Positions 1 to 43,988 of a stretch of DNA of 64,000 bases are shown in pieces (the first letter of the stretch is position 1; each line of letters starts with the position of its first letter). The translations under genes and the position numbers were made by a program. The notes beneath the pieces were generated by a model that ran no database searches, was not told the DNA's origin, and saw only the letters and a program-made list of their open reading frames with translations. The DNA comes from a virus: the IMG/VR virus record IMGVR_UViG_3300023174_000065. The stretch is one strand, 5' to 3'.

Positions 1-258
1 GATTCATACACACTTGAATTAGCTATTGCAAATAGACAGCCAGTTGATATACTAAGAACATTGGCACATGAATTGGTACATGCAAAACAACATGAACAAC
101 ACATTGACATCGATCCTACCACAGGATCGCCTGAAGAGAACGAAGCTAATGCTGTTGCCGGTATTGTAATGCGTCACTTTAATAAAGAGTATCCTGAGTA
201 TCTATCTTTTCAACCACTAGAAGAAAGTAAATCAAATGGGCGGAAACGTATTTGCTGA
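1..258 (+). CDS. HExxH zinc-metallopeptidase-like protein, 5' truncated by window
   Basis: Frame is open from base 1 (DSYTLELAIANRQPVDILRTLAHELVHAKQ...EENEANAVAG): HExxH plus downstream ExxA motif. Confidence 0.6.
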   Translation, partial: DSYTLELAIANRQPVDILRTLAHELVHAKQHEQHIDIDPTTGSPEENEANAVAGIVMRHFNKEYPEYLSFQPLEESKSNGRKRIC

Positions 259-1177
259 TAAAACAAGCAGCATCAAGCGTGAACACATTACTCCAACTTT
301 AACAGCATATTTTGCTGAATTATCTAATTTATTTCCATCTAAAAAAGACATTTTTAATACAGATCACTTCATTGCCCTAGGTTCTGTCGGCAAGAAAGCT
401 GTAAGTGGTGATATTGATCTTGGCGTTAGCATTGACGATATTCTCAATCTGAATGATGTATATGAGTCTTTAGAAGAGTGGGGATTAGCTGTCGCAGAAT
501 TTGAGAATGAATTTATTCTACTCAAGAAACGGGCCCGATCTAGTAATGATAATCAACTGCGTATTAAAGCGTTTCTTAAGTTGTTGACCAAGTACATTAA
601 CGACCATGCTGAACACATCTTCTGCGACGGGAAGAAGGTAACAGATGGTAACATCTTTACACTGTATCCACAGGTTGATGAAAATAACTCCAGTTTAGGA
701 ACAGATGTACAAATTGACTGGATGGTAGGTAATCTTGAATGGCTGAAGTTTTCCTACTACTCGGCTGCATATCCCGAAGATTCAAATGTTAAAGGTCTGC
801 ATCGCACACAGTTGATGTTAAGTGCGTTTCAAATAGCAGGATTATCATTTGGGCATGTCGCAGGCGTTAAGGATAAGCACACAGGCGAGTTAGTGGCAGT
901 ATCACCAGCAGGTGCATTAGCTGTGCTTGGCTCACATCTTGGATTTAAAATTACCGAAGACGATGCAGAGGATTATTACAAGCTCTACATGTTGCTTGCT
1001 GAAAATCTTGATCCCGATCAAATGTATCGCTTGCTTTGTACTTACTTTAAGATTCTGGATTCAACCCGTACTACAATTCCGGATAATTTAAGAACGCAAT
1101 GGATTGATATGAAAAAATCACTAGGATTGACTGGAAAATTCTTACCAGAAGATGATTGGTTACGACAGTTTCTTTAG
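236..1177 (+). CDS. Pol-beta/PolX-superfamily nucleotidyltransferase 1
   Basis: LGSVGKKAVSGDIDL (GS-x8-DxD) and third acidic strand VQIDWM; 313 aa. Confidence 0.7.
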   Translation: MGGNVFADKTSSIKREHITPTLTAYFAELSNLFPSKKDIFNTDHFIALGSVGKKAVSGDIDLGVSIDDILNLNDVYESLEEWGLAVAEFENEFILLKKRARSSNDNQLRIKAFLKLLTKYINDHAEHIFCDGKKVTDGNIFTLYPQVDENNSSLGTDVQIDWMVGNLEWLKFSYYSAAYPEDSNVKGLHRTQLMLSAFQIAGLSFGHVAGVKDKHTGELVAVSPAGALAVLGSHLGFKITEDDAEDYYKLYMLLAENLDPDQMYRLLCTYFKILDSTRTTIPDNLRTQWIDMKKSLGLTGKFLPEDDWLRQFL

Positions 1178-1963
1178 TTTACACTTATCAAAATGATATC
1201 CAGACATTCCTGAGACATCGCCCGTTTTTAAACAATAAGGACATGTTACAGTTTTTCTTTTGTTTTTATGTTTCATTTTTCTACCTTTGTTAACTCCTAC
1301 TAATTCACCAGTTTGTATTCGAGGATCATCTGTCATTACCATGAAAATATTACCTTCACTGTCGCGAACATTTGTTCTGCCCTTGTTAACTCCTACTAAT
1401 TCACCAGTTTGTATTCGAGGATCATCAAAAATTACCCTATGAGTCTGACCATTGGCATCTTTTACCGCAACGAATCCTTTATTTTTTTCACTTATTTTCT
1501 TATTAGTAATTTCTGAATTTACTTTTCCTCGATGCTGATCGCCTATCAGTTTTTTACGTTCATCGGTATGCTTATGGCCTGGCTTTCCTTTTTTTGATTT
1601 GCTTATTCGTTGCCTAGCGCCAATATCATGGATTCCGCTGTATACTATTTTGCCAGATATGTCATTGTATTGCTTATTCATGCATAATGGATTAGTAATA
1701 TGCTCTTTAATTAACTCTTGCTCAACTCTATAGATTTCTTTATAATTGTCATGTGACAGCAAAATATCTATTATAAATAGTTCCGGCGTATTTTTGAACA
1801 TTTTTTTCAATTTACCGGATGTAAAATATTTTATGCCAATATCCTGATTTGGAGTTAGATTTAGTTTAACATTCTGATATCTAGACCCAATGTAAAACTC
1901 TCCAGTATTGTTATTAGTTATTTTATACACATATGGTAAAATTAAATTGTTATAATTATTCAT
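1160..1963 (-). mobile_element. Free-standing GIY-YIG homing endonuclease with NUMOD3-like region and C-terminal Zn finger
   Basis: YVYKITNNNTGEFYIGS; basic HTDERKKLIG..HRGK segments; CPYC...HFDKC; antisense to the operon; own TAAATA (1979-1984) and AGGAG RBS. Confidence 0.85.
1287..1426. repeat. 44-bp exact direct repeat inside the endonuclease gene (1287-1330 and 1383-1426)
   Basis: TTGTTAACTCCTACTAATTCACCAGTTTGTATTCGAGGATCATC occurs twice with 96-bp period, within the duplicated peptide DDPRIQTGELVGVNKGR. Confidence 0.9.
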
Positions 1964-2016
1964 AATTTCTCCTAAATTTATTTATCAACATACCCGACAA
2001 TTTACATATTTTTATT

Positions 2017-2121
2017 GACATTCCTGACAACTTAACATATCATTGGTTGAACTACAAAGATGAACTAGGGTTGACTGGCAAATTCCTGCCTGAGACTTCT
2101 AAGCTGAAGGAACTGATATGA
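2017..2121 (+). pseudogene. Orphaned original 3' end of nucleotidyltransferase 1
   Basis: Translates DIPDNLTYHWLNYKDELGLTGKFLPETSKLKELI*; 18/33 identical to the current C-terminus; its TGA overlaps the ATG at 2118. Confidence 0.85.
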
Positions 2122-2987
2122 GCGGTGTAACTGGTGCAGAACGAGTGCGGAGTCGTGAAGACTTTGCACAGTTTGTCAAAGAGTACGAGGAAGTAATCTC
2201 TAACTTTCTCGGTTATATGTCTATGACTACTTCTGGCAGTTATAATTCCGACCTTAGCAAAGATACATTCGGCGACATCGATCTAATCATCCATTTTGAT
2301 ACATGGAACGATAAGAAGTTGCTCAAGCAAATGCTTGTTAAGTATTTTGAAACGCTACCTAATGATGTAATTGTGCCGTTTACATCTCCAAAGTATACCG
2401 GGAAGCGTACCAATAATACTGGAGAACTTGTATCAGTTCGGTTTCATAGCAAGATACTAGGGTATTCTGTGCAGATTGATAACATTGTTGCACTCTCCGA
2501 AGAAGAGATGGAGTTCAAGCGCGAGTTTCTTGATATGCCTGCTGAAAAACAGGGCCTTGTGCTAGGGCTTGTTAAGGTTGCTGCAATTGAACACGATCCA
2601 GCAGTAGCGTTAGCTCTATTAGAGATAGATGAAGTTCCAATTAATCCAGGCAGAAATGCCGAATGGGAATTTTCGTTAAGCAGTTCCAAGCTAGAGCTAC
2701 GAATGGTTCATTACAAGCCTGGTACAACTGAACAGTTGCAACACGATATCTACTGGATCAGTCAGAATTGGAATGATGTAAAGAAACTTCTTTGGCAGTA
2801 CGATCTTGACAAGAGCTTTGATCAACTGCTATTAGACGTAAAGAATACTATTGTAAATCCTCGTAGTGCAAAGCGTATTATGGGCTTGTTCAAGAGTATG
2901 GTCACAGTTAAGTCAGGTGAAGTTGGCACACCTAAAGGTGCTAACAAGGAAAAGTCATTGTCAAAGGTAATCTTATGTCTAGCATAG
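2118..2987 (+). CDS. Pol-beta/PolX-superfamily nucleotidyltransferase 2
   Basis: SGSYNSDLSKDTFGDIDLII (GS...DxD) and VQIDNI; 289 aa. Confidence 0.7.
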   Translation: MSGVTGAERVRSREDFAQFVKEYEEVISNFLGYMSMTTSGSYNSDLSKDTFGDIDLIIHFDTWNDKKLLKQMLVKYFETLPNDVIVPFTSPKYTGKRTNNTGELVSVRFHSKILGYSVQIDNIVALSEEEMEFKREFLDMPAEKQGLVLGLVKVAAIEHDPAVALALLEIDEVPINPGRNAEWEFSLSSSKLELRMVHYKPGTTEQLQHDIYWISQNWNDVKKLLWQYDLDKSFDQLLLDVKNTIVNPRSAKRIMGLFKSMVTVKSGEVGTPKGANKEKSLSKVILCLA

Positions 2988-3526
2988 TATTTGCATTTGG
3001 TCGATTTCAGCCGCCTACAATTGCACACGGAATGATGTTCCAGCTGATTAAGAATTATGCTGCGTCGGAAAATGCCGATTACGCAATCTTTGTGAGCAAG
3101 ACACACGACAAGAAGAAAAATCCGCTGACAATTGATGTTAAGATTGAGTTTCTGCGTGAAATATTTCCCGGTATTAACTTTATCGAGTGCAACGATACTG
3201 TTCGCACTCCTGTAGAGGCTGCTAAATTTCTAAATGAGAAATACAAGAATTTAGTATTCGTTGCAGGTGGTGATCGTATTGACACATTGGGCAATGTTAT
3301 CAAAAAACAAAACGGCATTGACTATATATATGACTCAATTGAACTATTGTCTATCGGCAAGCGCGATTCTGATAGCGATGGCATAGAGGGCGTAAGTGGC
3401 ACTGCTGCTAGGAAAGCTGCACTAGATGACAATTTTGCAGCATTTCGTAAGATGATTCCAGACACCATGGATGACAATCGTGTAAAATTTCTCATGGAAA
3501 TGATAAGTACTAATATACCTTTATAA
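2975..3526 (+). CDS. Cytidyltransferase/NMNAT-like (HxGH-class) nucleotidyltransferase
   Basis: FGRFQPPTIAH, KKNPL, VAGGDR, GVSGTAARKAA motifs typical of T4-like phage cytidyltransferases. Confidence 0.8.
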   Translation: MSSIVFAFGRFQPPTIAHGMMFQLIKNYAASENADYAIFVSKTHDKKKNPLTIDVKIEFLREIFPGINFIECNDTVRTPVEAAKFLNEKYKNLVFVAGGDRIDTLGNVIKKQNGIDYIYDSIELLSIGKRDSDSDGIEGVSGTAARKAALDDNFAAFRKMIPDTMDDNRVKFLMEMISTNIPL

Positions 3527-3541
3527 AGGAAGTATTTGTAT

Positions 3542-4864
3542 ATGAGATCCAACGAGTTTACTTTTTTCACTAATACTGATGAGGCAATAGAGCATAATTC
3601 AGAAAATCCAGATGATCCAATGATCACGGGTCATCTGGGAATAAATCCTGCAAAATTATCATACAGAATAAAACAAGCAAAGTCGATGATAGCAGAATTA
3701 GCAGAACGAGCACAATCTGCTGGTCCAGCTGAATGGCGCGTGATTGCCCATCACATGAAAGAACTTGAAATGAATATTGAGCAAATTCGTCATGCATATG
3801 AGGAAATGGACAAGAAGTATTTTGGCGAATCAATCTATGAAGATTGGCAAAAAGCCAATCGAAAAGATAGAACTCCAGGCATGAGTAAAAAAGCAGTAAA
3901 GGCATATCGTAGAGAAAATCCCGGTTCTAAGTTAAGCACCGCGGTAACCACCAAACCAAGCAAATTAAAAAAGGGATCAAAGGCAGCAAAACGCCGTAAA
4001 TCATTCTGTGCTAGAATGAAGGGCATGAAGAAAGCCCATGCGAGTGCCAAGACAAAGCGTGATCCTAATAGTCCAATCAACAAGTCACTTCGTCGCTGGC
4101 ACTGCGAAAGCATTGAAGAAATGCGTGACATGATCATTAATGCAGAACTGAAAATAACTGCGTTAAAAGAAGCAGCTAATCCAGCACAACAAGCTGCCAT
4201 TGCAATTAATATGAAGAAGAAAGGCAAAAAACCACATAACGTGGAGGAAAGCGAAAAAAGAATGAGCCGGGCAGCCAAGGGATATGAAAAATATGGCAAG
4301 CAAGGTATGATGGCGTTAGCAAAAGCAGGCCGTGATGGCGCTAGTGAAGAAGAACTTGATACAATCAGAGACAAGCACGACAAATATAATGAATCATGGA
4401 GTGCCAAGTATAAAAAATCAATCAACTGCTCTCACCCAAAAGGATTTAGTCAAAAGGCGCATTGTGCAGGCAAAAAGAAGCACAATGAATCTGTTGAAAT
4501 GGAAATGACTTGCCCGGAATGTGGCATGTGCAAAACACATGGCAATCTTAATGAAATTAAGAAGGGCCAAAAAGATTCAAACGGCGTTACTAAATGTTGG
4601 CCTGGATATCAAGCTAAAGGTACTAAAACTGGCAGAAATGGCGGCCAAGTACGCAACTGTGTCAAAGTAGCCGAAGAAAGCAAAGATTCAGAAGTAAAAG
4701 AAGCAAAGAAGAAAACTTTGCGCAATACAAATCCTTGTTGGAAAGGATATCATCCAGTTGGAACTAAAGAAAAAAATGGCAGAACTGTTCCAAATTGTGT
4801 GCCAGTTGATGAATCTTATGAAAATGAACTCAGAAGGTTAATAAAAATATTGGAACAAAAATGA
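3542..4864 (+). CDS. Modular basic/Cys-rich protein, probable capsid-internal polyprotein
   Basis: Likely ATG at 3542 (MRSNEF); short modules separated by xxE sites; KRRKSFCARMKG...SLRRWHC module and two CWxGY...NCV repeats. Confidence 0.6.
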   Translation: MRSNEFTFFTNTDEAIEHNSENPDDPMITGHLGINPAKLSYRIKQAKSMIAELAERAQSAGPAEWRVIAHHMKELEMNIEQIRHAYEEMDKKYFGESIYEDWQKANRKDRTPGMSKKAVKAYRRENPGSKLSTAVTTKPSKLKKGSKAAKRRKSFCARMKGMKKAHASAKTKRDPNSPINKSLRRWHCESIEEMRDMIINAELKITALKEAANPAQQAAIAINMKKKGKKPHNVEESEKRMSRAAKGYEKYGKQGMMALAKAGRDGASEEELDTIRDKHDKYNESWSAKYKKSINCSHPKGFSQKAHCAGKKKHNESVEMEMTCPECGMCKTHGNLNEIKKGQKDSNGVTKCWPGYQAKGTKTGRNGGQVRNCVKVAEESKDSEVKEAKKKTLRNTNPCWKGYHPVGTKEKNGRTVPNCVPVDESYENELRRLIKILEQK

Positions 4865-30599: not shown

Positions 30600-33500
30600 T
30601 TATATGACCAAATCAATTATTTCATCACTACCTTCTTGTAAAACATTGCCAATGTACCACTGTTTCGATGTTCTCTTAGTCACATCCAATCTTGCTCCAA
30701 CTACCGGAATAAAGTTCAATGTCAATATATTAGTGGTCGTGGAAATATCATACTGAGATGTTAGAACAATATCCGACAACTCAGATGAGTCATATGATTT
30801 ATCAAAGTCATGTTTTATCGTTGATTGTCCTGGCTTCAACAACAAGCGTCCCTGATATCGAACTTCTACTTGATCGGTATAAGAAGCAGTATCATCAAAA
30901 TAGAAGTTACTAAGATAATAATCAGTTGACAGAGTTGTAGAAGTGGAAAATGTCTGAGTCACATCAGTAAAACCTAATGTTTGTGCTGTTCCTTGATCTA
31001 TTACTTCAGTTCCTGCCTTATGAACCCTTCTTGGCGAGGTTCCTAAAGTTCCTCTTCTAATCTGTGTTAATCGATTCTCATTGATCTCAAAGAACTCAAT
31101 TCTTTCGCCATCTACCAAAATTACTCCAGGTCTATTTTCTAATTTATTTGGCGGAGATAATGAATGCGTATATGACACGGCTATATATGTAGACGTTGAA
31201 TACAAGTTCTCTGCCAAGACTACTGTATTTTTTCCTCTAAGAGCCTTATAATGAGTTCGTCCTAAGAGATCCCTGAATATTCTGTAACCAGAAAGAGTAT
31301 TCACAAGATCAGCAAAACTAGTAATCACAACACTAATGTCCTGCGTCTGAGAGATGCCACTGTTAATTATAACGGTATATCCATCCGCATCAACTGTGTA
31401 ATCAACTCCTAGCGCCATTGGTTTCCCATTAACACTTACCCACACATATGCGGAATTCAACACAGGTCGTTGTAATCTATATTCACCGGTTGCGTGTCCA
31501 ATAAATCGTTCTGTTCGGATAAAATTAGGATCATGGTTGGTAAAGGTAGTGATTCTAAACTCATCATACTGTTGAGTAGCATAAGTTAGAATCAACTTGT
31601 CATCCTGTACAAGATAATCATGATTTTTTTTCACAACTATCGCAATCACATCTCCATCAATCAATGAATTTTCGGCAAATTTAATAGTGTTTTTGTTTTG
31701 ATTTAATTTCCAAATTCCAGAAACTGTGGAAATATCTCCGTTTATATAAACTTCAAGATCGTTTAATGCAATAGTTCTACTCTTAAATGTATATGATTCG
31801 CTAATATTATAAACCAATTGTCCATTCACCACTTGGTAATAACTTGTTACAGGAGGATTCAATCGAAGACCATTGTTAGTAACAATTACCTGACTATGAT
31901 ATGGAGCCAATTTGCCCGGAGGATTAGTAAGTGAAATTACAGTGGTAGCTGTATATGCCACATATACTTGTTCAGTTATCTCGCTAATCGCTTTTATCGG
32001 CGCACTGAACAGATATGACTGTATTGTTCCTGCACTGAAGAAAGTAAATTCTGGAGTATTTAAGTTATCCACTAAGCTATAATCAACTCCAAATATTGCC
32101 GGAATTCCATTAATTGTAACATATGTACTTGATCCAGCACTGCCTATTGCATCAAATAGTACGGGAGGCGAATATTTGCCACCTGGCGCAGAAAAAGTCT
32201 CAACATTATAATCTATTAAAGATATAGTTCCTGCATGAATCGATGTCAAGCTAAGAGCACCTAATCCAGGAGTTGTTGAAGTGAACCTAAAAGTATTATT
32301 GGTAAAATCTATCACGTATTCATTTTTGTTCAATTTTCTATTATTAAACACTGCAATTACAGAATCAATATTAGTAGGTTTTAGACCTAGACTATAAGTG
32401 GAAGTGGATCCGTTCACTGTATACAATTTATTAACGATGTTAGGTTGTACCAAAGGAGATTGTGTATAAAGACTGATACCAACTGATTCCATAATCTGAC
32501 CAGGAACACACTCTTCCGGAGCAGGACTATTATAAGAATTTAAGAAACCATCGTCGATCATTCCTGTCATAAATCTAGTTGATGTTGAGCCACCATCTAA
32601 TATTATTTCACTAGGAGTTAATCCTAGAGCGGTAGTGTATGCCATATTGCCGCCATTAATAACGGAGTCCAAGCTTCTTTCAATATCGTATATTTGCAAT
32701 GTTCCATCACTATCAGAGTGCCTGAATTCAATTAGCGTACTCGTTGTCAGGAAAGCCGAAGAAGGAATGGTGATCACAGTCTGAGTGGTAGCCGAAACAG
32801 TTGTTGTGAACTCAGATTTTATCACTGCTCTTGCGTATGCTTGTATCGTGGATGGTCCAGTGATTGTAACTACTGGAGTAGAAGTGTATCCTCTGCCGCT
32901 ATTTTGTAATTCTATACCAGTAATTTGGCCTAACACATTCAGTATTGCAGTGGCGGTTGCAGCAGTTCCACTGATAGAATTAGGCGAAGATATTGTCACT
33001 GTTGTCAATGAAGATACATAACCTGAACCTGACACAGTGACTTCTATATTGTCAATTGCTCCTGATCCTATTCCAATAATCGTAGGAACTATTGCAGATC
33101 CCGTGCCGTCAATTCTAGTCTTATTTAGGTAAACATTAACTCTTGTTCCAGTACTGATTATAGTATCGGTAAGAACAAATGTCTGCGTACTCGTAGAATT
33201 TGTTGAATATGAAATATAACCAGATTCTAAAGAATAATTATCCCATGTCGTAGTCCCAAATGGCAACATATCCCAACCATTTGAAAAATCAAATGGCAAA
33301 GTTTCAATTGATAAACCATCATAGGCCACTCCCGACATCAACTGCTCGGGATCTTTTCCAGGCATACCAGCGGTTGGTTGATAATAGTATTCAATTCGAT
33401 CTACTGCTGTGTAAAACGACAGATTTTTTAAATAACTAATTCTAATTCTATCAAATTTATTAGGAATATACTGTAATTTAAGAACAGCATATGATTTTGT

Positions 33501-36500
33501 ATAGCTATTATTAAATTTTTCTTTTCGATATTCTATTGTATAACTATCATAAAGCTGTAAAGTATCGTTGACATATAGGTCTATATCTGCTTTGTTTAAA
33601 ATAGGTACCCATGTTAAATCAAATGAGACTTGGTTATCTATAGCAACAAACGAGTCGGTCCATGTTGATGTGCCAATTTCTCGTTGACCAGTCACTCTAT
33701 CAAACTTTAAGGCAACAGTGTTTGTTCTAACTGGACTTTTGCCTAGTCTAGCATACACCCTTGCAGGAGTTAGAGCACCATTTCCTCCTCCGTTGATAAC
33801 AACAGTAGGCGCAACAGTGTATCCATTTCCAGGATTTGTCACAATAATGTCGGTTATTTTTCCTAACGCAACATATGCAATTGCAGTTGCGCCATATCCA
33901 GTATCATTTGCGGCGGCTATTATTGAAATAGTTGGCACTGCATTATAACCAGATCCACCATCAAATACAGTTATTGACTCTATGCCATGAGTGTGATTTT
34001 CAAACCATGATTTCCAAGGATACTGTAATAGTTTCTTATTTCCAAAATCAACATTAGTAAAATTAGATGTTGAAGTATTGTAATACACTGGCAAATCAAA
34101 GTCAGTGGTGAAACTTTGAGTAAATTCCGTACTGGTATATGCCTCTACAAATTTTCTAATTTTTGTATGATATGGTTTAATTTCTTTTAAGAAATTTTCA
34201 TAATTTTTGCTATTTTGTAATTTGTAGGAATGACGCTGATCCAAACTACCCAAATTATTTATTACTGAAATAAACGTAGTTTTGAATGCCCAGTCTAAAT
34301 TTTTCTGCTCAGTCATTGCATATCGAACAGCTTTGAAGAAAAGCTGATTCCAATATATCTTTAAATTTCCTACGAATATATCATCTTTTAATGCTGTAAC
34401 GGCATAAAAAATTTCTTTAGAAGGTGATTGATCGAATTGAGTTTGGTCAAATCCAGCACGTTGATCCCATGCATACAATGATCCCGATAGGTTCCATAGT
34501 GGTTCAAGGAATTGTATAGTGCCATTTTGAGAGTACACAATATTCCAATTATCATCGAATGTGCCGCCAGTGCCAGCGGTTCTTTCAAGTATCAAATATC
34601 TTCCGTCACCGCCGTTTTCAACTTTAATATAACTGCCGATGTCCAACGACTCCCATGCATCAAGTGCAAATGTCGAGGATATTTTTGCAGATATTTCCAT
34701 TCGAGAATTATAATTAGGACTCATCCAATCTATATATTTCCAGTACTGAGTAGTGTCATATTCCTGTGTCCTGGACTTGTTCCAACGCTGTCTCTCAACA
34801 TCCCACTCATATACTGCCCACTTGCCATTAACCGTGGAATCAGTCTGCACCACTACAGTAAAGGGCCTAACTGTAATAGTTGCATAAGTGTATTGACTAC
34901 CAGGATTTATTATAGATACACGAACAACGCGACCAGATTCATCTATTCCATCCTTTTCAGGAACAATGATCTCTGCTCCCGTTCCGTCACCTGTAATCAC
35001 AAGCGTCGGTGATACTCTATAATCTGATCCAGGATCAACAATTACAACTGATGAAATTTTACCATTTAAATCAATTATTGGCCTAATATCTGCTGATTTT
35101 ATACTCTTGACATTTACAAGCTCAAGTGCGTAAATGTCTTCAACTAGTAAATCATAGGATGCCGCTGCTGGAATATGATCTTTTGATTCCAGATTCCCAA
35201 AGTTAATTTTATCGGTAATCAATAAAGATGCCAATATTGTATTACTGAATTCCATGATATTACGCATTGCTTCTAGTGGATATTTGAAGAGACTCTGCTG
35301 TGGTCTAATTCCCAGTCCATATCTAACCTTTTCTGGCAAGTTAGGAAACGGTACTGCATTTCCTATTTCATCATGCCCTATTAAGCTATCTATCAATTTT
35401 TTTTCTAATAATGCGTTTGGCTTACTATTAGGATCATTTTCTTGCAATAATAGCCATTCAGTGTGCCTATTTGCAGAATTTCTGGTATAATCAAATGTAA
35501 TATTAAGATTAACATTATTTGACACAAGAGCAGGCTTGATATTTGATATCATGGCCGATGTTGGACCTAGAATTGCTATTGATTTAATCCCTGAACCAAC
35601 AGGATCAGCTATTTGTGATGCAACACTAAATGCAGTAAGTTTCCTATTATGAACGTTGTCAGGAAGAATATTTTTGTTCTTTACCCAGTAATAGTATACA
35701 TTACTAAACGAGTTTGAAACTGAATTATATACCTGTTTTACCGACATTACTGTATTTGTGGCAAATTTTGGCTGGCCGCTTATTCCTCGTGCCAATCCAT
35801 CCGCAGTGTCTGCAAAAGTGCTCCACTCTATTGGCAAGAATTCCGATTTTACCCACTCATAAACGTCAATTGTACATCCAGGAAATAAACGATTCCAATT
35901 GTTTTTTCTATATTCCAACTCACCCTGTTCGTACCATACAAATTTTACATTAGAAAGATCCCACCACAATTCACCCACATGCTCATCAAGCCAGTTAGAA
36001 TTTGTATCAACATTTGTACTATCAATGCCAATACTGTAGATTGCAGGATCATAAGGTGTGATAAATTTTAATTCCTGCTTTGCTGTTGCCAAAATATCAC
36101 CCTTAACTGGATCAATAATGTCAAGGTAATCTTTGACTTGTTGTGTTTTTGAATCAATAGTTGATGCTTTTTTAACTAGTGTTAGATCGACCAGTGGTGA
36201 ATTTTGTCTGAGAAGTTTCCATGCATTTACAGACACTTCTTTTCGATCATAGATGTAGACCTGACCTCGGCCTTGATTGTATGAACTCAACAGTGACGGT
36301 GCACCAACACAAATAGTCTTTGAAGTAACTGATAAACCTGATCCAAATGAGCTTCCCAAATTGACTGAGGATGAAGGCAATTCTTGTGCGTAAGTCCAAA
36401 ATTCTCCATACTTGTAGTAAACATGAACTGTTCCAACATCATAAACTACATCATAAAAGGTGGTCGTTCCTGTATCAAAATCTGTAGTTGAATTCCTAAC

Positions 36501-39500
36501 GGGACTTGTAGGATCATTCACATAAATTGTACCATATAATGAGTTTGCAATGGTACTTCCTAGTCTTGTTGAGTTTCTATCATAAGTTGTTGTACCAGAA
36601 TATATACTATTCTTGGTCGAAATCACTAACTCAGTCTCAGTTTCATCCAATGCAATATCATACCCAAATTCCAATTTACCAAATTCAAATGGCGAATCCA
36701 GGCGCTGATTGAATGAATAATTGGTACCTGTCCACATGAAAATATCGACTACACCTGTATTGTTTCCTCTAGCAGAATCATTATAATTTTGTGTACCAAT
36801 AAACAAAAACTTTCCATCTTTTGTTAGTTTTATCGTTGATCCAAAATTATCAGATGCTCCAAAAGTAACTGGAAGTTCAGAGCTATCTCCTGATATTATT
36901 TTCAACTGCTCAAGTACATTGGTTGTAGAATTTTCACGATATACAAATACTGCACCGGTTGATCCCAATGTATTATTAATTCCTGGAGCAGTTACGGCAA
37001 CAATACTATTATTCCAATTTGCCGCAATATTTGTACCAAAGTTACTTCCTGTAGAAATAGAAGGCGAAGTTCTACTAGAATATGTCACATTGACCGAAGT
37101 TGTTACACCAACGGTATAACGATAAATTGCACCTATGCCATTAGCATATCCAGGAGAGCCAACAATTAATTTTGATGTCTGAGTTGAATACGCCAATGAT
37201 TTTCCAAATCGAGTATTGTTTTCAGGATTAGGAGTTGTTATAACGGTCGCAGTCGTCTCTGTTCGTCCATTTTCATTAATTATGGATAGTTTTACAACTC
37301 CCTGGTTGACAAATTGATTAGAAATACCCGATGCAGGATTAACTACTGTATTTGTCAAGGTTGATTTCACACTTGATGCACCGGATGCTCCTGCAATAAC
37401 CAATGATATTCCTGAATCAAACGCAACTGCTTCTCCAAAGAAACTAGTTTCAGTTCCATCATAGTATGTAATATTATCTTTATTAATAGAATAGCTAAAA
37501 TTAAATCGAGGATTACTATCGGCATTTCTAGTTAGAACGGAAATACGGCCAGTGTAACCGTAGATGGTCTCTTTGTATGTAGGAGATGATACGATGATAG
37601 TGGTAGTATTGACATTCTGAACAATTTTATAACCATACTGTTGACTGGTAATATCAGGCGCTGGAGCAGATATAACACTGGTAACTGTTGTAAAATTATC
37701 AATTTTTTGATATACTGCCCAATTACCGTCGCCCTTATCATCAATCCACATTAGTTCGCCGATGCGTCGGTCAGTATCATATGATAAACTGTTAGTAGCT
37801 GACCAGTTTAAATCTGACATTCTAGAGCTTTTAAATGTGTGTAATAATCCTCCTAGAAAATCAGGCAATACTGGCAATTCAAAAAGTACAGAGAATACTG
37901 TAAATTCTGTTGGACTGATAATTCGTGCAACTACATAACACCGATCAACATCAACTGCAATGCCTGTTATACTAACAATATCATTTGTATTGAGTAAATG
38001 TGGTCTACTGGTAACAAAAGCAGTTTCCTGACCAGAAATATAGATTTCAGCAGCAATAATCTTAGTAGCAACTTTGGTATATCGTAATACATCCCAATCT
38101 CTACTCTCAGTGTAACCTAGCCAAATAGCCGTTCCATCAGTGAGTGCTGCATTATTTGAAATATCTAAAATACTATTTTTATTAAAAGCAGTCAATGATA
38201 TATCATCAAATCTAGGATATCCCGCAACAGGTATTTCAAAATCTGTGTACACAGTGGATGTAGTCAGAGTTGGGAACGCCTGTTCAATATCAAAATTATC
38301 AGGCGAAATAATCACATCATTAATATCTTTGTAATAAATGGAGTCAGCAACATCAGTTGGTATTGTATTGACAAAGCCAATAATCTGTGGATTTTCAATA
38401 AATTTTGTAGGATCTAGAGGTGTTTCCAGTTCTTGATAAGTATTGAATCCACCATAATATCCAATGCGAAATGCCCACTCCTCGTTGAAATCTATACTTC
38501 CACTATCATTGATTAGTGTAGATTTGCTCAACTTAATCAAAGGATTTTTTGTACCCTTTTCACGAATATATCCCTGATAGAACTTATATTCCGCAACTGA
38601 ATTGCCAATAATATTGTTAAGATAAGGTCGTGGCAAGTAACCAACCAAATGCTGTGCCATGCGCTGTTGACCTGCATCAAAATTATCAATATCAAGACTA
38701 TAAAAATCTTCAAATTGATTAATCTTATAATCAAAGTTTGGATATAAAGTTGATTCCGGTTTACTACTCAAAAGGGTCCAACTAGTTAGATCAAAGGACT
38801 GACTGCCTTGTACTGACTTTGTGGCAGAATAATAATTGCCAGAAAACCGTACAACCTGACCAATTTCATAACTAGTAAATTTTTCCCAATCAACTATCGT
38901 TGCTCTATCAAATATAAATCCTGGACTAAAAAAGTCTCCATTCCAATTTTTAGTTCTGAATCCCTGAAGTTTTACCCTACGCTGACGATAACCTGTTTCA
39001 ATATCATATATAACATCATTAAACAGACTATAATTGTTAAAAATTAATGCATGTTCTTTTTGAACAAGATTTAATTTGGCAAAATATATACCATCCGTGG
39101 CATTGACCGTTGATATTGTGAAGTTTCCATCCGATCGAATCAACGTAAATCTATTTTGTAGGAATGGTGATCCATCTGCTCTAAGCAAACTATACTCATA
39201 AAATTTATTGAGTATGTTATCAACTATTCCAGTATTTGAATAAAAGTTCAGTTTATTTGCAAACGGACTCAGAGTTATAACTGAATTAGTTGTCCAATTC
39301 TGAGTTGTCCAAAATAAAAATTCTTTAGCACTAAGCGTCCAATCAGAAATTTCACCTAAATCATTTACAAAGTCATCAAATATAAATCCTTTAGATACAA
39401 GCCAGCGCCCATAACCGATAATAAAATCATACACTTCTTGTATAGTTTCAAAGGTGGTACCATAGGGAACATTCTTTGCAGTATCTGAAAATAACGAGCG

Positions 39501-42500
39501 AGTAGACACACTTATTCCACCGATCATTGGCAAATAAGGAAGACTTTGATAATAAGACATCACGAAGTCTACACCACTATTGTGCTTCTGTTTTGACCGA
39601 TAGTACCTGTCCATATAAAATACAATCTGACCAAGATCATATATAGAATTTGCCTGCCAATTTACAAAATTTTCGGATCTACCTCCAGAAACTTCAAGTC
39701 GGTCAGTTGCAACTGGTACTGGCTCAAATACTGTAAAGAATGGTTCATATTTGTCATAACCTCTAACAGAGAATCCCGTGAGAGTCTTTTGTACTATTAT
39801 TCCAGAAATTCCCAAAGTCTGTATAGGTGAACTTTGATTAAAAAATATCTGATAGTCTTCAGATGGCAATAATACTCCAGGATATGGACTCGTAGGATCT
39901 ATAGAGTCAATTGAGATTTGAAGTTTGTCTTTGCTTACAAATCCGCCTAATTTTACCATCAAATTATACGTAACGTTAGACAAATCATTTTTTAAGGAGG
40001 TAAGATATTTTGCATCATTCATTAGTCCACGTTCAATTACAAAAACACTATAACCAGAAGCAAGTACTCTAGTGCCGTTAACAACATCACGATATAGAGA
40101 AACCTTTGACAAGTTTAAAAACTGATGACTTTTTCCATACTTATATTGATTAAACTTATTTGCTATCAACCTATCAGGATCAAACATAAAAGCTGCATAA
40201 TCGGCCGGCTTAGTAAGCGCTGCAACAATTTGATAGATAAATGGCCAATAACTACTCTTTCTCCATGAGGTTTCGGCCGGACCTTGGTCTCCCACTATCC
40301 AATCACTGTCAATATTAATGCTTCTGATATTAATAATTCTTTTAGGATCACCAGGATTAATTATAGCAGTTGTGACCAGTCCAGTATCTGTTGGACTTAA
40401 TAAATTACCACTATCATCAACTGGAATAAAATTAGACAATCCTGGTCTTGAATACAAAGAATGTGTTCCTGCGCGATCACCACTTGCAATCTTGCCAGAT
40501 TCCAAGTCATTCCAAAGAATTGTATTTCCACGAGTATAAGGAGAAGGTCCATACTCGGTATTCCACCATTCAGGTTTTTCAGTAAATCCTAGCATTTCCC
40601 ATGGATGAGTATGAGGACGATCAGTGTCATAGAAAAATTTATATATTGCTCGCCAGTGTCCTGGCATTCTACGCTTGTGTATTCCATCAATCATTCCAGA
40701 ATAATTAAATGTAAACGTATCCAACTGATCAAATGTATTATTAGTTTGATAATCTACCCCAAAATTACCTGCCCACTTTAATATATCGGGAGTAATAATA
40801 TCGGTAATCTCATTTATTGAATAGTCAGTTGTTCTAAATGCACCTGGAATAATTGAGTTTATGTCGATCAAATGTCTCTTATAATCTGTTTTTATATTAT
40901 TATAAACACGAATTTCAAATTCTAATAAAACATCATCTCTATAGTCACCAAATGCAAGAGTGATACTACCATCATGACCCTGAATAACCAAACGAGGATC
41001 ACCTACATATGTGTCATCATAGAATTTTGCTGGAGTATATTTAGGATAAAGACCCAATTTTGTAGGTGTAGGAGGAACAAAATTACCTACAGTACTGGAA
41101 TAGTCAGAAACTAAAATAATATCACCGGATGAAAGAGGAACTTTAATCGTAAAACTTGCAGAAAATCTATCAATAATATAATCTCTGCCACTGATCAATA
41201 ACACATCATTCAAATATATCAAAATTGATCTTTCGCTCAGGACTGTATTATCAAAAATACTCTCCAAACTATAAATTTTGTTTCTTGAATCAGTGACTGT
41301 ATATGATCTATCACTATGATTTTTGCCATAAGCAATCATATCTGAAAAATTATACGAAACTGAATTGTCTTTTACCAGATTTAGTGAGGATATTGCCAAA
41401 TCTAGAATATCCCTGGGAAATAAATCGTAGGAATTTCTCAAATCAGTAATACTTCTAAGGAGATTGGATTTAAATTGGTTATAATCTTGTGCAACCTGTC
41501 TTACAGAATCAATTATACTGTGTTGTTTTGTTCCTAAAAAGTAATGAGCAAAACTCATGGGATTGGAATGACTTACTAATTTAGATCCATATTTTCCAAC
41601 ATTTGATAAATCTCGCAAGTTTCCATTTCCTGGAAAAACTCCAATAAATTCAGGACTATTATAGGCAATTGTTCTGACGTGGTCACTTAGTTCCGCATAT
41701 GTAAAATTGCCGATAGGTCCATTTAATGGATTGTCGGTTAAATTACTAGGTATTTCATAATAACCATGATCATTAGAAGGTTTTTCAGTAAACAGTTTTA
41801 TTAAAACTCTATCGTTCACTGAAAATGAATTTTCTACTACAACATATGCTCTCTCTGAATCCCTTGCTATTCTAAAATCAATATAACGACGCTTTTTGAC
41901 ATCATTTACATATAGATCAATCTCAAGATCAGGTGTATAACCAGGCTCGTCAATTGCAATAATTTGAACGTATATGATTTCTGAATCAATCACTTGATAT
42001 TGAATAATTGGAATATGTAGTTCGGACTGCTCTGTCCACACATCTAAAAATGATTCTGTACCATCGGCATATGTTATCTTTAGATAATTGCCAGCAACCA
42101 TTCGATCTTCGATCTGATTATTGACCGATAATGCAAACGTATCCGTCATAAAATCATTATTGAACAGATAGTCGCCTTGATTTGCTATATTTTTATATTT
42201 TAATGGAAAATTTAAAATGGCGTCTTTTGAATTATTGGTATCCACTGCGTAACTAAACACATTTGTTCCACGAAATGTGGAATTATATACGGTCTGGTCA
42301 GAAAAACTAATTCCATCATCGTCAAAAACATCAAACTTAGGAAATTGATTTAACGCAAGACGCTGTTGAGAATATGTCCATTCATTGCCGTTAAACCACC
42401 AATTTGTTCCCTTATATGTTTCGCCACGAAGAACTACCAATGAAGAATTGTACTCAGATACAGTATCCAGAGTTTCTACCAAGTCTACTACTTGTTTTCC

Positions 42501-43988
42501 GTTTACCGTAACAAAGTTAACTTCAAAAATCTTACCACGAGTTAAAGGATCTTTGTCTGCATTAAAAATTACTCTAAAACCAGGTTCAACCATTACTTGA
42601 TCAATATAAAATCCAGGACTATTTGCAAATGCCGAAAGAGCATCAACTGTAATCGTATCAATAAGATCAACTGTTTGTTTAGTAGTTGCACCAAAATTAT
42701 AAAGTCTTAATCCAGAAACAAATTCAATAATAGGACGCCTTGCTTGTTGAAGAGAAGAATATTCTGGTTGAACTCCGTTAGCAAGAGCAGTGGATTTAAT
42801 CACGTCAATATGAACCCAACGATTATATCGACTCCATGAATTTCTATCGGGACTTGCTCGATTGATTGTAATATATTCAGGCAAAAGAGGAACATAACTA
42901 AAATCATCAAATGGATATTGATCAAATGGAGTAGCATCAAAGTTAACATTCAAATTAGTAGTAGATATTCCAACAGTCTTTAGTTCGTTATAAGGAACAA
43001 GAGTGATATATGTACCAACTCCCTCTACTATGAAATCATTTTCTGCATATTCTTCAGGCATAACATTGCCAGCAAATCTAACTTTCATGCCATTTGAGAA
43101 TTCTACGCCGCCGATAGACGAATAAGTCTTTTTGCCTATAATATCAGCAGAAACATCTAAGATTGAATTTTCTATTGCGCGCTTTACTACAATTTGTCCA
43201 ACGCCGTAGAGATTTCCTTCTGGAAAATAAAATAAATTATCAGGAGTAGTGTCATCAATTGTTAAAATAAGTCTACCTTGTTTAACACCCTGATTGGTAG
43301 CTCCTCTATATAGACCAACTTCTCCAGGAACATATCCGGTTTTTATATAAAATGGATAGTCACTGTTAACATCAAATACATAGGTAGATCCTCTATATAA
43401 AGTTAACAAAGGAGATGTTGATAGACCATCTGGAGTAAAAATCAAACTTTTACCATCAACTGAATCAGTTACTGCGTAGGAACTAATAGTCGATGCTTGC
43501 TGACCTGCAATTTCAATAGTGTCTGGACCATTTGGTAACCAGTAGTATTGTCCGTAATTAATAAATTTATCCCAATCTATACACGGATCATATGAGAACG
43601 ATTTTGGCCTAAATAGTCTATCTAGGTTAGATACCTTGGATCCATTAAATTTCAATTCATTAATTAAATCATCATATGTAGATGAATATGTTATATTCAA
43701 ATTTGGATCTTTTATAACAAGAGACGGCTCTAATTGATAGCTATTTCTTAATGTGCCATTAGAATCGAGGTATATATCTTTTGCAGGATCATAATTTAAA
43801 CTGAGCTTGCTTCCAACAAATCCATCGAGTCGTTCTAACTGTGGCTCTTGAATAAATTGATCAAGTGTACTCGCTAAAAATTTTGCATTTTTATCTGTTT
43901 TATGATATCCCGGCAACAGATCAACAGTCCTACGTACATTTGAAGGATTGTTTATATCCACTGGATTAATAAATTCTTTATTGGCCAT
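30600..43988 (-). CDS. Giant (4462 aa) baseplate wedge-associated structural protein
   Basis: Uninterrupted 13.4-kb ORF downstream of gp6; FG-GAP-like repeats, CBM-like W..Y..G..V motifs, GSGY...PTV repeats. Confidence 0.8.
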   Translation of the reverse strand: MANKEFINPVDINNPSNVRRTVDLLPGYHKTDKNAKFLASTLDQFIQEPQLERLDGFVGSKLSLNYDPAKDIYLDSNGTLRNSYQLEPSLVIKDPNLNITYSSTYDDLINELKFNGSKVSNLDRLFRPKSFSYDPCIDWDKFINYGQYYWLPNGPDTIEIAGQQASTISSYAVTDSVDGKSLIFTPDGLSTSPLLTLYRGSTYVFDVNSDYPFYIKTGYVPGEVGLYRGATNQGVKQGRLILTIDDTTPDNLFYFPEGNLYGVGQIVVKRAIENSILDVSADIIGKKTYSSIGGVEFSNGMKVRFAGNVMPEEYAENDFIVEGVGTYITLVPYNELKTVGISTTNLNVNFDATPFDQYPFDDFSYVPLLPEYITINRASPDRNSWSRYNRWVHIDVIKSTALANGVQPEYSSLQQARRPIIEFVSGLRLYNFGATTKQTVDLIDTITVDALSAFANSPGFYIDQVMVEPGFRVIFNADKDPLTRGKIFEVNFVTVNGKQVVDLVETLDTVSEYNSSLVVLRGETYKGTNWWFNGNEWTYSQQRLALNQFPKFDVFDDDGISFSDQTVYNSTFRGTNVFSYAVDTNNSKDAILNFPLKYKNIANQGDYLFNNDFMTDTFALSVNNQIEDRMVAGNYLKITYADGTESFLDVWTEQSELHIPIIQYQVIDSEIIYVQIIAIDEPGYTPDLEIDLYVNDVKKRRYIDFRIARDSERAYVVVENSFSVNDRVLIKLFTEKPSNDHGYYEIPSNLTDNPLNGPIGNFTYAELSDHVRTIAYNSPEFIGVFPGNGNLRDLSNVGKYGSKLVSHSNPMSFAHYFLGTKQHSIIDSVRQVAQDYNQFKSNLLRSITDLRNSYDLFPRDILDLAISSLNLVKDNSVSYNFSDMIAYGKNHSDRSYTVTDSRNKIYSLESIFDNTVLSERSILIYLNDVLLISGRDYIIDRFSASFTIKVPLSSGDIILVSDYSSTVGNFVPPTPTKLGLYPKYTPAKFYDDTYVGDPRLVIQGHDGSITLAFGDYRDDVLLEFEIRVYNNIKTDYKRHLIDINSIIPGAFRTTDYSINEITDIITPDILKWAGNFGVDYQTNNTFDQLDTFTFNYSGMIDGIHKRRMPGHWRAIYKFFYDTDRPHTHPWEMLGFTEKPEWWNTEYGPSPYTRGNTILWNDLESGKIASGDRAGTHSLYSRPGLSNFIPVDDSGNLLSPTDTGLVTTAIINPGDPKRIINIRSINIDSDWIVGDQGPAETSWRKSSYWPFIYQIVAALTKPADYAAFMFDPDRLIANKFNQYKYGKSHQFLNLSKVSLYRDVVNGTRVLASGYSVFVIERGLMNDAKYLTSLKNDLSNVTYNLMVKLGGFVSKDKLQISIDSIDPTSPYPGVLLPSEDYQIFFNQSSPIQTLGISGIIVQKTLTGFSVRGYDKYEPFFTVFEPVPVATDRLEVSGGRSENFVNWQANSIYDLGQIVFYMDRYYRSKQKHNSGVDFVMSYYQSLPYLPMIGGISVSTRSLFSDTAKNVPYGTTFETIQEVYDFIIGYGRWLVSKGFIFDDFVNDLGEISDWTLSAKEFLFWTTQNWTTNSVITLSPFANKLNFYSNTGIVDNILNKFYEYSLLRADGSPFLQNRFTLIRSDGNFTISTVNATDGIYFAKLNLVQKEHALIFNNYSLFNDVIYDIETGYRQRRVKLQGFRTKNWNGDFFSPGFIFDRATIVDWEKFTSYEIGQVVRFSGNYYSATKSVQGSQSFDLTSWTLLSSKPESTLYPNFDYKINQFEDFYSLDIDNFDAGQQRMAQHLVGYLPRPYLNNIIGNSVAEYKFYQGYIREKGTKNPLIKLSKSTLINDSGSIDFNEEWAFRIGYYGGFNTYQELETPLDPTKFIENPQIIGFVNTIPTDVADSIYYKDINDVIISPDNFDIEQAFPTLTTSTVYTDFEIPVAGYPRFDDISLTAFNKNSILDISNNAALTDGTAIWLGYTESRDWDVLRYTKVATKIIAAEIYISGQETAFVTSRPHLLNTNDIVSITGIAVDVDRCYVVARIISPTEFTVFSVLFELPVLPDFLGGLLHTFKSSRMSDLNWSATNSLSYDTDRRIGELMWIDDKGDGNWAVYQKIDNFTTVTSVISAPAPDITSQQYGYKIVQNVNTTTIIVSSPTYKETIYGYTGRISVLTRNADSNPRFNFSYSINKDNITYYDGTETSFFGEAVAFDSGISLVIAGASGASSVKSTLTNTVVNPASGISNQFVNQGVVKLSIINENGRTETTATVITTPNPENNTRFGKSLAYSTQTSKLIVGSPGYANGIGAIYRYTVGVTTSVNVTYSSRTSPSISTGSNFGTNIAANWNNSIVAVTAPGINNTLGSTGAVFVYRENSTTNVLEQLKIISGDSSELPVTFGASDNFGSTIKLTKDGKFLFIGTQNYNDSARGNNTGVVDIFMWTGTNYSFNQRLDSPFEFGKLEFGYDIALDETETELVISTKNSIYSGTTTYDRNSTRLGSTIANSLYGTIYVNDPTSPVRNSTTDFDTGTTTFYDVVYDVGTVHVYYKYGEFWTYAQELPSSSVNLGSSFGSGLSVTSKTICVGAPSLLSSYNQGRGQVYIYDRKEVSVNAWKLLRQNSPLVDLTLVKKASTIDSKTQQVKDYLDIIDPVKGDILATAKQELKFITPYDPAIYSIGIDSTNVDTNSNWLDEHVGELWWDLSNVKFVWYEQGELEYRKNNWNRLFPGCTIDVYEWVKSEFLPIEWSTFADTADGLARGISGQPKFATNTVMSVKQVYNSVSNSFSNVYYYWVKNKNILPDNVHNRKLTAFSVASQIADPVGSGIKSIAILGPTSAMISNIKPALVSNNVNLNITFDYTRNSANRHTEWLLLQENDPNSKPNALLEKKLIDSLIGHDEIGNAVPFPNLPEKVRYGLGIRPQQSLFKYPLEAMRNIMEFSNTILASLLITDKINFGNLESKDHIPAAASYDLLVEDIYALELVNVKSIKSADIRPIIDLNGKISSVVIVDPGSDYRVSPTLVITGDGTGAEIIVPEKDGIDESGRVVRVSIINPGSQYTYATITVRPFTVVVQTDSTVNGKWAVYEWDVERQRWNKSRTQEYDTTQYWKYIDWMSPNYNSRMEISAKISSTFALDAWESLDIGSYIKVENGGDGRYLILERTAGTGGTFDDNWNIVYSQNGTIQFLEPLWNLSGSLYAWDQRAGFDQTQFDQSPSKEIFYAVTALKDDIFVGNLKIYWNQLFFKAVRYAMTEQKNLDWAFKTTFISVINNLGSLDQRHSYKLQNSKNYENFLKEIKPYHTKIRKFVEAYTSTEFTQSFTTDFDLPVYYNTSTSNFTNVDFGNKKLLQYPWKSWFENHTHGIESITVFDGGSGYNAVPTISIIAAANDTGYGATAIAYVALGKITDIIVTNPGNGYTVAPTVVINGGGNGALTPARVYARLGKSPVRTNTVALKFDRVTGQREIGTSTWTDSFVAIDNQVSFDLTWVPILNKADIDLYVNDTLQLYDSYTIEYRKEKFNNSYTKSYAVLKLQYIPNKFDRIRISYLKNLSFYTAVDRIEYYYQPTAGMPGKDPEQLMSGVAYDGLSIETLPFDFSNGWDMLPFGTTTWDNYSLESGYISYSTNSTSTQTFVLTDTIISTGTRVNVYLNKTRIDGTGSAIVPTIIGIGSGAIDNIEVTVSGSGYVSSLTTVTISSPNSISGTAATATAILNVLGQITGIELQNSGRGYTSTPVVTITGPSTIQAYARAVIKSEFTTTVSATTQTVITIPSSAFLTTSTLIEFRHSDSDGTLQIYDIERSLDSVINGGNMAYTTALGLTPSEIILDGGSTSTRFMTGMIDDGFLNSYNSPAPEECVPGQIMESVGISLYTQSPLVQPNIVNKLYTVNGSTSTYSLGLKPTNIDSVIAVFNNRKLNKNEYVIDFTNNTFRFTSTTPGLGALSLTSIHAGTISLIDYNVETFSAPGGKYSPPVLFDAIGSAGSSTYVTINGIPAIFGVDYSLVDNLNTPEFTFFSAGTIQSYLFSAPIKAISEITEQVYVAYTATTVISLTNPPGKLAPYHSQVIVTNNGLRLNPPVTSYYQVVNGQLVYNISESYTFKSRTIALNDLEVYINGDISTVSGIWKLNQNKNTIKFAENSLIDGDVIAIVVKKNHDYLVQDDKLILTYATQQYDEFRITTFTNHDPNFIRTERFIGHATGEYRLQRPVLNSAYVWVSVNGKPMALGVDYTVDADGYTVIINSGISQTQDISVVITSFADLVNTLSGYRIFRDLLGRTHYKALRGKNTVVLAENLYSTSTYIAVSYTHSLSPPNKLENRPGVILVDGERIEFFEINENRLTQIRRGTLGTSPRRVHKAGTEVIDQGTAQTLGFTDVTQTFSTSTTLSTDYYLSNFYFDDTASYTDQVEVRYQGRLLLKPGQSTIKHDFDKSYDSSELSDIVLTSQYDISTTTNILTLNFIPVVGARLDVTKRTSKQWYIGNVLQEGSDEIIDLVI

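Follow-up and report, generated by a model that had tools for sequence, protein, structure and literature searches.

This analysis concerns a stretch of 64,000 nucleotides (nt) of a virus (IMG/VR virus record IMGVR_UViG_3300023174_000065), which in its full length is called the window here. The window opens with a run of genes on the plus strand that encode an HExxH protein, two predicted nucleotidyltransferases (NTase 1 and NTase 2), and a cytidylyltransferase-like protein. Between NTase 1 and NTase 2 lies an antisense gene for a GIY-YIG homing endonuclease, with a copy of the NTase 1 gene end on either side. A reading made from the letters alone (the original prediction) had proposed an intron-less endonuclease that repairs its target gene by supplying a replacement 3' end. 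We consider it likely that positions 1066-2014 are a 949-bp homing-endonuclease cassette lodged inside the 3' end of NTase 1, and that this cassette consists of a foreign tail, the antisense GIY-YIG gene, and a 51-nt leader. The features of the locus are the following:

1-258, plus strand: end of a 444-amino-acid (aa) HExxH protein, from the list of open reading frames
236-1177, plus strand: NTase 1, a hybrid gene with a native body (236-1065) and a foreign end (last 36 codons and stop)
1064-1066, plus strand: left junction at codon T277 (ACC); the match to the empty allele stops at 1065
1066-1177, plus strand: foreign replacement tail, from R278 to the stop; left part of the 949-bp cassette
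1160-1963, minus strand: gene of the free-standing GIY-YIG homing endonuclease, 267 codons, apparently intact, antisense to NTase 1
1160-1177, both strands: convergent 18-nt overlap of the tail end and the endonuclease end
1276-1436, minus strand: two 65-nt direct repeats within the endonuclease gene, encoding DDPRIQTGELVGVNKGR modules
1964-2014, minus strand: endonuclease leader of 51 nt, the right end of the cassette, with a putative ribosome-binding site (AGGAGA)
1987-2010, no strand assigned: copy B, the third fragment, AACATACCCGACAATTTA-CATAT, a look-alike of the native target
2015-2121, plus strand: untranslated relic of the native tail, from the TT of codon V279 through D280 as far as the stop
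2015-2043, plus strand: sigma-70-like match TTGACA-N17-TATCAT (11/12) from a consensus scan, beginning exactly at the right junction
2118-2987, plus strand: NTase 2, a second Pol-beta-like nucleotidyltransferase with a weak Pfam match to DNA_pol_B_palm
2975-3526, plus strand: cytidylyltransferase-like gene (Pfam CTP_transf_like, PHROG 3041)

The anatomy described by the original prediction was found in the window. NTase 1 ends in IPDNLRTQWIDMKKSLGLTGKFLPEDDWLRQFL and a stop (IPDNLRTQW...QFL, 1076-1177), and a second, start-less tail of equal length, IPDNLTYHWLNYKDELGLTGKFLPETSKLKELI and a stop (IPDNLTYHW...ELI), lies at 2020-2121, with the intact antisense GIY-YIG reading frame between the two. 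As claimed, the tails share 18 of 33 residues and their codons have diverged: 58 of 102 nt are identical, and 9 of the 18 codons for shared residues are spelled differently. The TGA of the second tail (2119-2121) overlaps the ATG of NTase 2 (2118-2120), also as predicted, and reading the sequence between the stop at 1963-1965 and position 2020 revealed no in-frame ATG, GTG, or TTG ahead of this tail. The third fragment, the 15-mer ATA CCC GAC AAT TTA (IPDNL) at 1990-2004, is present as well, in frame with the second tail and 30 nt upstream of it. A back-translated IPDNL pattern had three matches in the window against 0.07 expected, all of them at these sites, which is more than chance.

The IMG/VR database was scanned with NTase 1, yielding a survey of 80 loci with homologues of this gene. 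Two of them, L002 and L003 (the same as L089 and L092), come from different metagenomes and agree at every position over 8.9 kb; record G001, the nearest available to the window, is one of the two. The endonuclease gene is absent from both, and NTase 1, which ends there as ...LDSTRVDIPDNLTYHW...KEFI (= ...KILDSTRVDIPDNLTYHWLNYKDELGLTGKFLPETSKLKEFI), has a TGA that overlaps the NTase 2 start codon (ATG). Endonuclease-free alleles that run directly into NTase 2 exist, as had been predicted. A protein cluster representative, P0002, ends in KELI exactly as the relic does. An ungapped base-by-base comparison with L002 showed that the match to this empty allele holds through 1065 (...GGATTCAAC) and restarts at 2015 (TTGACATTCC...), and that the empty allele holds just AAGGG between the equivalent points. 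In other words, the window is the empty allele with 5 nt lost and an insert of 949 bp (1066-2014) gained. The left boundary is sharp, with no mismatches to L002 in 806-1065 and dense mismatches from 1066 onward. The flanks of L002 and L003 are 98-100% identical to the window yet lack the insert, which constitutes a presence/absence polymorphism at one site. Of the predicted insertion at or near the IPDNL codons, only "near" stands: the true junction is at T277-V279, three to four codons upstream. This site falls in a conserved block (nucleotide identity 0.69-0.72 versus a gene mean of 0.61). A CNNNG motif (CAAGG) sits exactly at the junction of the empty site and is absent beside copy B and the relic, but such motifs are common by chance and this difference is too weak to carry weight. 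A second tail copy was found in none of the other IMG/VR loci surveyed (about 80), and no endonuclease-free relative carried both tails (0 of about 75 endonuclease-free loci).

Comparison with these relatives also distinguished the two tails by origin. On the one hand, the relic (2020-2121) is identical to the working tail of L089 (= L002) at 97 of 102 nt, and over 2015-2108 it has a single mismatch to L002. On the other hand, the translated tail is identical to native tails at only 58-62 of 102 nt. Together with the respelling of half of the codons for shared residues, this indicates that the new tail is foreign and the relic native, i.e., that the downstream copy was left behind recently and the translated one derives from a distant lineage. 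The downstream copy had been proposed to be the ancestral terminus, a claim that the relative's working tail bears out; the further claim that the endonuclease arrived together with a C-terminus is supported by the position of the foreign tail within the insert. When 5.8 billion proteins were searched with the tail only, the nearest tail was that of P0080 at 70% (P0122 likewise best) and no close source was found, so the donor lineage is unsampled. P0080, the nearest relative, is itself a hybrid allele that pairs with a related endonuclease. The foreign tail retains every residue that is invariant in the tails of the family (I281, P282, W289, L298-P304 (LTGKFLP), and L309).

The native tail has a conservation pattern of its own. 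Over roughly the last 100 nt, DNA identity is 91-95% in relatives whose gene bodies are 63-88% identical (L089, L090), and the tail protein is identical at 35-37 of 37 residues in homologues that are about 70% identical overall (P0009-P0027). Among the closer homologues P0004-P0007, the tails are more diverged. This pattern suggests either tail exchange between lineages or a constraint at the DNA level.

The endonuclease matched PHROG 314 ("homing endonuclease") at 1.8e-24 and carries N-terminal GIY-YIG motifs (VYKITN...GEFYIGSR...E(81)...N). A profile built from the protein and six homologues matched the catalytic domain of I-TevI (1LN0) with an E value of 0.0045, the catalytic glutamate being aligned to E75. 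When its AlphaFold model was searched with Foldseek, the top matches in the Protein Data Bank were 1LN0 and 1MK0 (TM score 0.56 on the target), followed by other GIY-YIG domains. A GIY-YIG catalytic domain was thus recognized, with homologues reaching 3.3e-07 (SegE_GIY-YIG). The C-terminal region was found to be modular: NUMOD3 occurs in six of the seven aligned homologues (best 4e-09), the alignment contains an invariant zinc-finger-like CPxC...H..C motif, and the two direct repeats, which are 89% identical, encode the repeated DDPRIQTGELVGVNKGR putative DNA-binding modules. Since its length equals that of its 62%-identical relatives P0140 and P0141, the endonuclease looks intact. The exact protein is present on two contigs, the longer of 334 kb, which makes an assembly artefact unlikely and identifies the host as a jumbo phage.

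Seg-like enzymes have an intergenic location, which this gene does not share, as the insert lies within NTase 1 codons 277-279. Moreover, the new tail and the endonuclease end on shared DNA: at 1160-1177, LRQFL and the stop of the tail (its last five codons and stop) are read codon for codon in antisense as LKKLS and the stop of the endonuclease. Recombination that separated the tail from the endonuclease would damage one of them, which offers a simple reason why both would travel as one unit. In searches against cultured phages, a megablast of positions 1-3600 of the window returned no match and a tblastn of the endonuclease returned a single partial match, from a Vibrio jumbo phage. Scanning IMG/VR with the single endonuclease protein gave no match, and a broad alignment retrieved 80 distant endonucleases there, of which none adjoins an NTase 1 gene. 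In Joint Genome Institute (JGI) metagenomes, close homologues retrieved three distant loci. Elsewhere in the window (59301-59732, plus strand), the motif region of GIY-YIG enzymes has a weak match (59349-59411, 21 aa, 43%) that may mark a second small GIY-YIG gene.

The same design recurs in a second lineage. The longest contig that carries the endonuclease P0142 (49% identical to that of the window) and the longest that carries the NTase 1 homologue P0080 both measure 4864 bp. P0219 shares a 90% cluster with P0080; the two differ at 2 positions in the first 305 residues and then at 12 in the last 34, the latter differences starting at the codon that matches the junction of the window. The cluster also includes a 36-aa gene call, P0221 (MDDIPDDLQHEW...KKEL), that is identical to the native tail of P0219 at 33 of 33 residues. 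P0221 reads as a stranded relic called as a gene, P0219 as the empty allele, and P0080 as the hybrid NTase 1. P0142 ends in SNKLS and a stop, the exact antisense of LRKFI and the stop of P0080 and in the same register as in the window, an overlap that is judged from the protein ends. As in the window, the relic of this lineage is the copy that resembles the native tail (33/33 aa, versus 22/33 for the inserted tail). The inserted tails of the window and P0080 are identical to each other at 22 of 33 residues, versus 16-19 of 33 between the window's tail and any native tail, and they share derived residues (R after IPDxL, EDD, and LRxF). We read this as one tail-plus-endonuclease unit that probably persisted while the enzymes diverged to 49% identity.

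At a further locus, L157, a distant GIY-YIG gene (250 aa, 34% identical) lies antisense to NTase 1 and convergently overlaps its end. The contig ends 34 nt past the endonuclease start, too soon to show any relic, and the NTase 1 tail is odd (VPDIL and SLTGKYLP). Within this locus (2471-4157), identity to the nearest relative, about 93% before, drops to about 55% in the 3' 140 codons of NTase 1, and family-invariant residues are altered (HATQG for HRTQL, GKYLP for GKFLP). The 3' part of this gene may be a long foreign tract or belong to a decaying gene.

The flanks of the cassette form a mosaic. Relative to L002, the window has 19 mismatches in 1-805, none in 806-1065, and one in 2015-2108; divergence then rises to 25-40% over 2109-2815 (most of NTase 2), and identity is 98-100% beyond. 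The block 2109-2815, which is 60-75% identical to L002/L089, begins inside the last four codons of the relic. This pattern looks like a homologous co-conversion tract that takes in some 260 nt to the left of the cassette, the cassette itself, and roughly 94 nt of the relic. Its source would have been an occupied L002-like donor and its recipient a genome with a different NTase 2, with the right-hand exchange inside the relic. An exchange at that place is plausible because native tail DNA remains 91-95% identical where gene bodies are 63-88% identical.

The likely explanation for these observations is homing. In a mixed infection, the enzyme would cut alleles that lack the endonuclease, within or close to the conserved block that encodes KILDSTRVDIPDNL, and the break would be repaired by copying the occupied allele. 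The NTase 1 body would serve as the left homology arm and the stranded native tail, together with NTase 2, as the right one, whereby the cassette would be copied in. The occupied allele would be protected, with its site split by the insert and its replacement tail differently spelled, and that tail would keep NTase 1 whole without splicing. Several points weigh against this explanation. The exact cassette of the window is represented by one DNA sequence, the phage is uncultured, and the second lineage is known from proteins only, so that adjacency there is deduced. The closest endonuclease homologues, P0140 and P0141, are likewise known as proteins without a genome placement. Taken alone, the endonuclease of the window stays below the Pfam cut-offs (SegE_GIY-YIG 14.8 bits versus 25; NUMOD3 0.025). 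At the local mismatch rate, the mismatch-free left flank has a P of about 0.002-0.01, as estimated from counts, and is only moderately significant. Finally, the loss of 5 nt at the junction and the tandem rather than fused arrangement of copy B and the relic are unlike clean homologous repair, which indicates that the founding event was at least partly illegitimate.

These last traits are what would be expected from non-homologous joining if an ordinary free-standing endonuclease gene located behind NTase 1 of a distant phage had once been brought in by accident, through faulty (illegitimate) break repair or recombination, with the gene end of that phage, leaving the relic as a fossil and an element that does not propagate itself. 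The rarity of occupied alleles (one phage in about 80 loci, and only two contigs with the endonuclease of the window) also fits such an accident. Nevertheless, we consider it unlikely. That tail, endonuclease, and relic follow one another at the same codon in another lineage, whose tail is related and whose enzyme is 49% identical, indicates that the unit moved or persisted over a long divergence; in addition, the flanks (806-1065 and 2015-2108) resemble a co-conversion tract, and the tail and the endonuclease are inseparable in the DNA that their ends share. Equal-length tails on both sides of the endonuclease gene could also have arisen in place, through a tandem duplication of the tail between whose copies the endonuclease landed and after which the translated copy diverged. 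An unselected copy should drift more, but here it is the unchanged one (97/102, versus 58-62/102 for the translated copy with its saturated silent changes), and the translated tail groups with that of another hybrid allele. In-place duplication was rejected on this ground and is very improbable.

Less probable still is a self-splicing intron with an antisense endonuclease, whose removal would join the NTase 1 body to the old tail. Homing endonuclease genes often reside in group I introns, and the old tail, which is intact, has kept its overlap with the start of NTase 2. However, the endonuclease is encoded antisense, the new tail ends in a stop of its own and retains all invariant residues, and excision of 1066-2014 would shift the frame (AC|TTGAC gives a stop). 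Neither a group I or group II intron nor any further credible RNA family matched positions 800-2400 of either strand at E <= 1, by which the intron was rejected and the intron-less arrangement of the original prediction upheld.

Within the proposed cassette, the leader of the endonuclease holds several candidate regulatory features. Copy B (AACATACCCGACAATTTA-CATAT), when aligned by eye with the native GACATTCCTGACAACTTAACATAT (D-IPDNL-TY), agrees at 19 of 24 positions with one 1-nt gap, and beyond IPDNL it follows the native-type tail with its TY codons rather than the new tail with RT. It lies inside the cassette 24-47 nt upstream of the endonuclease ATG, and the relic lies at least 52 nt upstream. 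The putative ribosome-binding site AGGAGA (1968-1973, minus strand) is 4 nt before this ATG, with AATT (1964-1967) as the spacer. Copy B may be either a vestige of an earlier host's relic that was carried along or a target mimic that is bound without cutting, i.e., an operator. Both copy B and the relic are look-alikes of the homing site that lack the cleavage motif and lie upstream of the endonuclease reading frame, as does the operator of I-TevI. A consensus scan called no sigma-70-like site on the minus strand of 1964-2100. A T4-type late promoter for the endonuclease was rejected, as neither TATAAATA nor GATAAATA is enriched in the window; TATAAATA is under-represented (3 versus 9.5 expected). 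On the plus strand, the TTGACA-N17-TATCAT of the relic, a consensus match, may keep NTase 2 transcribed after the interruption of the operon.

Tentatively, these features can be joined into a possible reading in which the relic functions as part of the element and has as many as three jobs. In the first of these it would be the right-hand homology arm, needed for homing into diverged phages because between relatives NTase 2 reaches only 60-75% identity, as against 91-95% for tail DNA. In the second, the relic and copy B would form a candidate non-cleavable binding site for self-repression, by analogy with I-TevI. As a third job, the promoter-like TTGACA-N17-TATCAT and a ribosome-binding site could keep NTase 2 expressed.

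NTase 1 has 1151 homologues. The AlphaFold model of the hybrid protein has a predicted local distance difference test (pLDDT) score of 91.9, with 86-93 through the new tail. Foldseek matched the model to the palm-thumb region of Pol beta/lambda (E about 1e-4), so the label "NTase" is reasonable, and a GSx..GDIDLG motif was read directly in the sequence. NTase 1 is thus, as judged from the model, a Pol-beta-like nucleotidyltransferase. The original prediction also proposed that NTase 1 is under selection, which the intact hybrid reading frame and the retained family-invariant tail residues suggest, and the hybrid protein is probably functional. In about 70 of the 80 IMG/VR loci, a gap of 0-20 nt separates NTase 1 from NTase 2. 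Paralogy of the two was not detectable by BLASTP, and on this basis the relic was ruled out as a leader of NTase 2. In the only relatives known from culture (Flavobacterium phage immuto, L001, 4911-7634), the homologue of NTase 2 forms the N-terminal part of a larger protein, 907 aa long and annotated as NadR / nicotinamide mononucleotide (NMN) adenylyltransferase, so NTase 2 and the cytidylyltransferase-like gene of the window are fused there.

The NTase 1/NTase 2 junction is an insertion hot spot. Separately from the GIY-YIG genes, reading frames of 128-136 aa occupy it in L135, L137, L154, and L156 (about 3440-3850), and two (207 and 98 aa) do so in L151 (3427-4343). These are unrelated and on the same strand, their stop and start codons overlap, and no duplicated tail accompanies them. 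Elsewhere in the window, near-consensus sigma-70-type sites, TTGAC(T/A)-N17-TATAAT, lie upstream of genes that start at 7809, 11018, 18917, 55046, 56012, and 59775. Motifs resembling ATTATAAA precede some genes, mostly on the minus strand (23767, 43988, and 47836) and also the plus-strand gene at 17014. A single reading frame of about 4460 codons spans 30600-43988 on the minus strand.

The closest known counterparts are the mobile endonuclease open reading frames (mORFs) of fungal mitochondria. Those described include Allomyces macrogynus atp6 (Paquin et al. 1994), atp9 of Rhizopus oryzae, and cox2 of Mortierella verticillata, as well as hybrids of atp6, atp9, cox2, and nad3 in Glomus sp. (PMC3630166). 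In each, a foreign C-terminus inserted into the 3' portion of a conserved gene is followed by the endonuclease reading frame and by the stranded native C-terminus, with no intron; the relic is near-identical to the gene end of a sister species, and the inserted end is strongly diverged (PMC3630166). Likewise, the window has a foreign C-terminus (1066-1177), an endonuclease (1160-1963), and a stranded native C-terminus (2015-2121) without an intron, and its relic is near-identical to the gene end of a relative (97/102) while the inserted end is diverged (58-62/102). The host is a giant phage here and an organelle there. Whereas the endonucleases of mORFs are mostly on the same strand and often in phase, that of the window is antisense and overlaps the new tail codon for codon; furthermore, the relic of the window still overlaps the start of the next gene, and a third short look-alike of the target lies in the endonuclease leader. 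With these differences, the cassette appears to match the mitochondrial mORF design in a phage version.

Among phages, Belle and colleagues are said to have described in 2002 the intronless homing of endonucleases of T4-like phages with co-conversion. T4-like phages carry free-standing GIY-YIG (Seg) and HNH (Mob) endonucleases, and their "intronless homing" is accompanied by co-conversion of flanking markers (PMC2988022). The window resembles these systems in its phage-borne, intron-less GIY-YIG enzyme with modular putative DNA-binding repeats, in the presence/absence polymorphism among close relatives, in a presumed target in a neighbouring conserved gene, and in the flanking sequence that appears to be carried along. 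In contrast, the Seg and Mob enzymes of T4 are intergenic and leave no stranded gene end, while the insert of the window lies within coding sequence and the carried tail is needed. Bonocora and colleagues reportedly described in 2011 the T4 mobA with the bypass cassette of gene 60. In Aeh1, mobE in nrdA is an endonuclease insertion that splits a phage gene without splicing (PMC10448857, PMC2988022). As in these two cases, the homing endonuclease gene of the window is inside a phage coding region without an intron or intein, and by analogy the function of the host gene would be kept. Unlike their two reassembling polypeptides or ribosomal bypass, NTase 1 is in one piece with its end replaced. 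The autorepression operator of I-TevI in the td intron of T4 matches its homing site at 15 of 20 positions without a well-placed CXXXG (PMC2988022). The look-alikes of the window are similarly just upstream of the endonuclease reading frame (copy B 19/24, the relic identical), but unlike that operator they could be mere leftovers of insertion. Literature searches turned up no phage example of a replacement gene end being carried along, though subscription papers were mostly outside their coverage and absence is not proven.

At the strength given above, the cassette means that the mitochondrial trick of a spare gene end operates in phages as well. Such an end would let a free-standing endonuclease colonise a conserved gene's interior with neither intron nor intein. 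As empty and occupied alleles occur naturally in two lineages, synthetic DNA would allow direct tests of the target site, of immunity, and of the route of homing. Gene ends beside endonuclease genes may be foreign, and can thereby distort phylogenies and gene calls in phage genomes. Likewise, short unannotated reading frames such as P0221 may be stranded gene ends.

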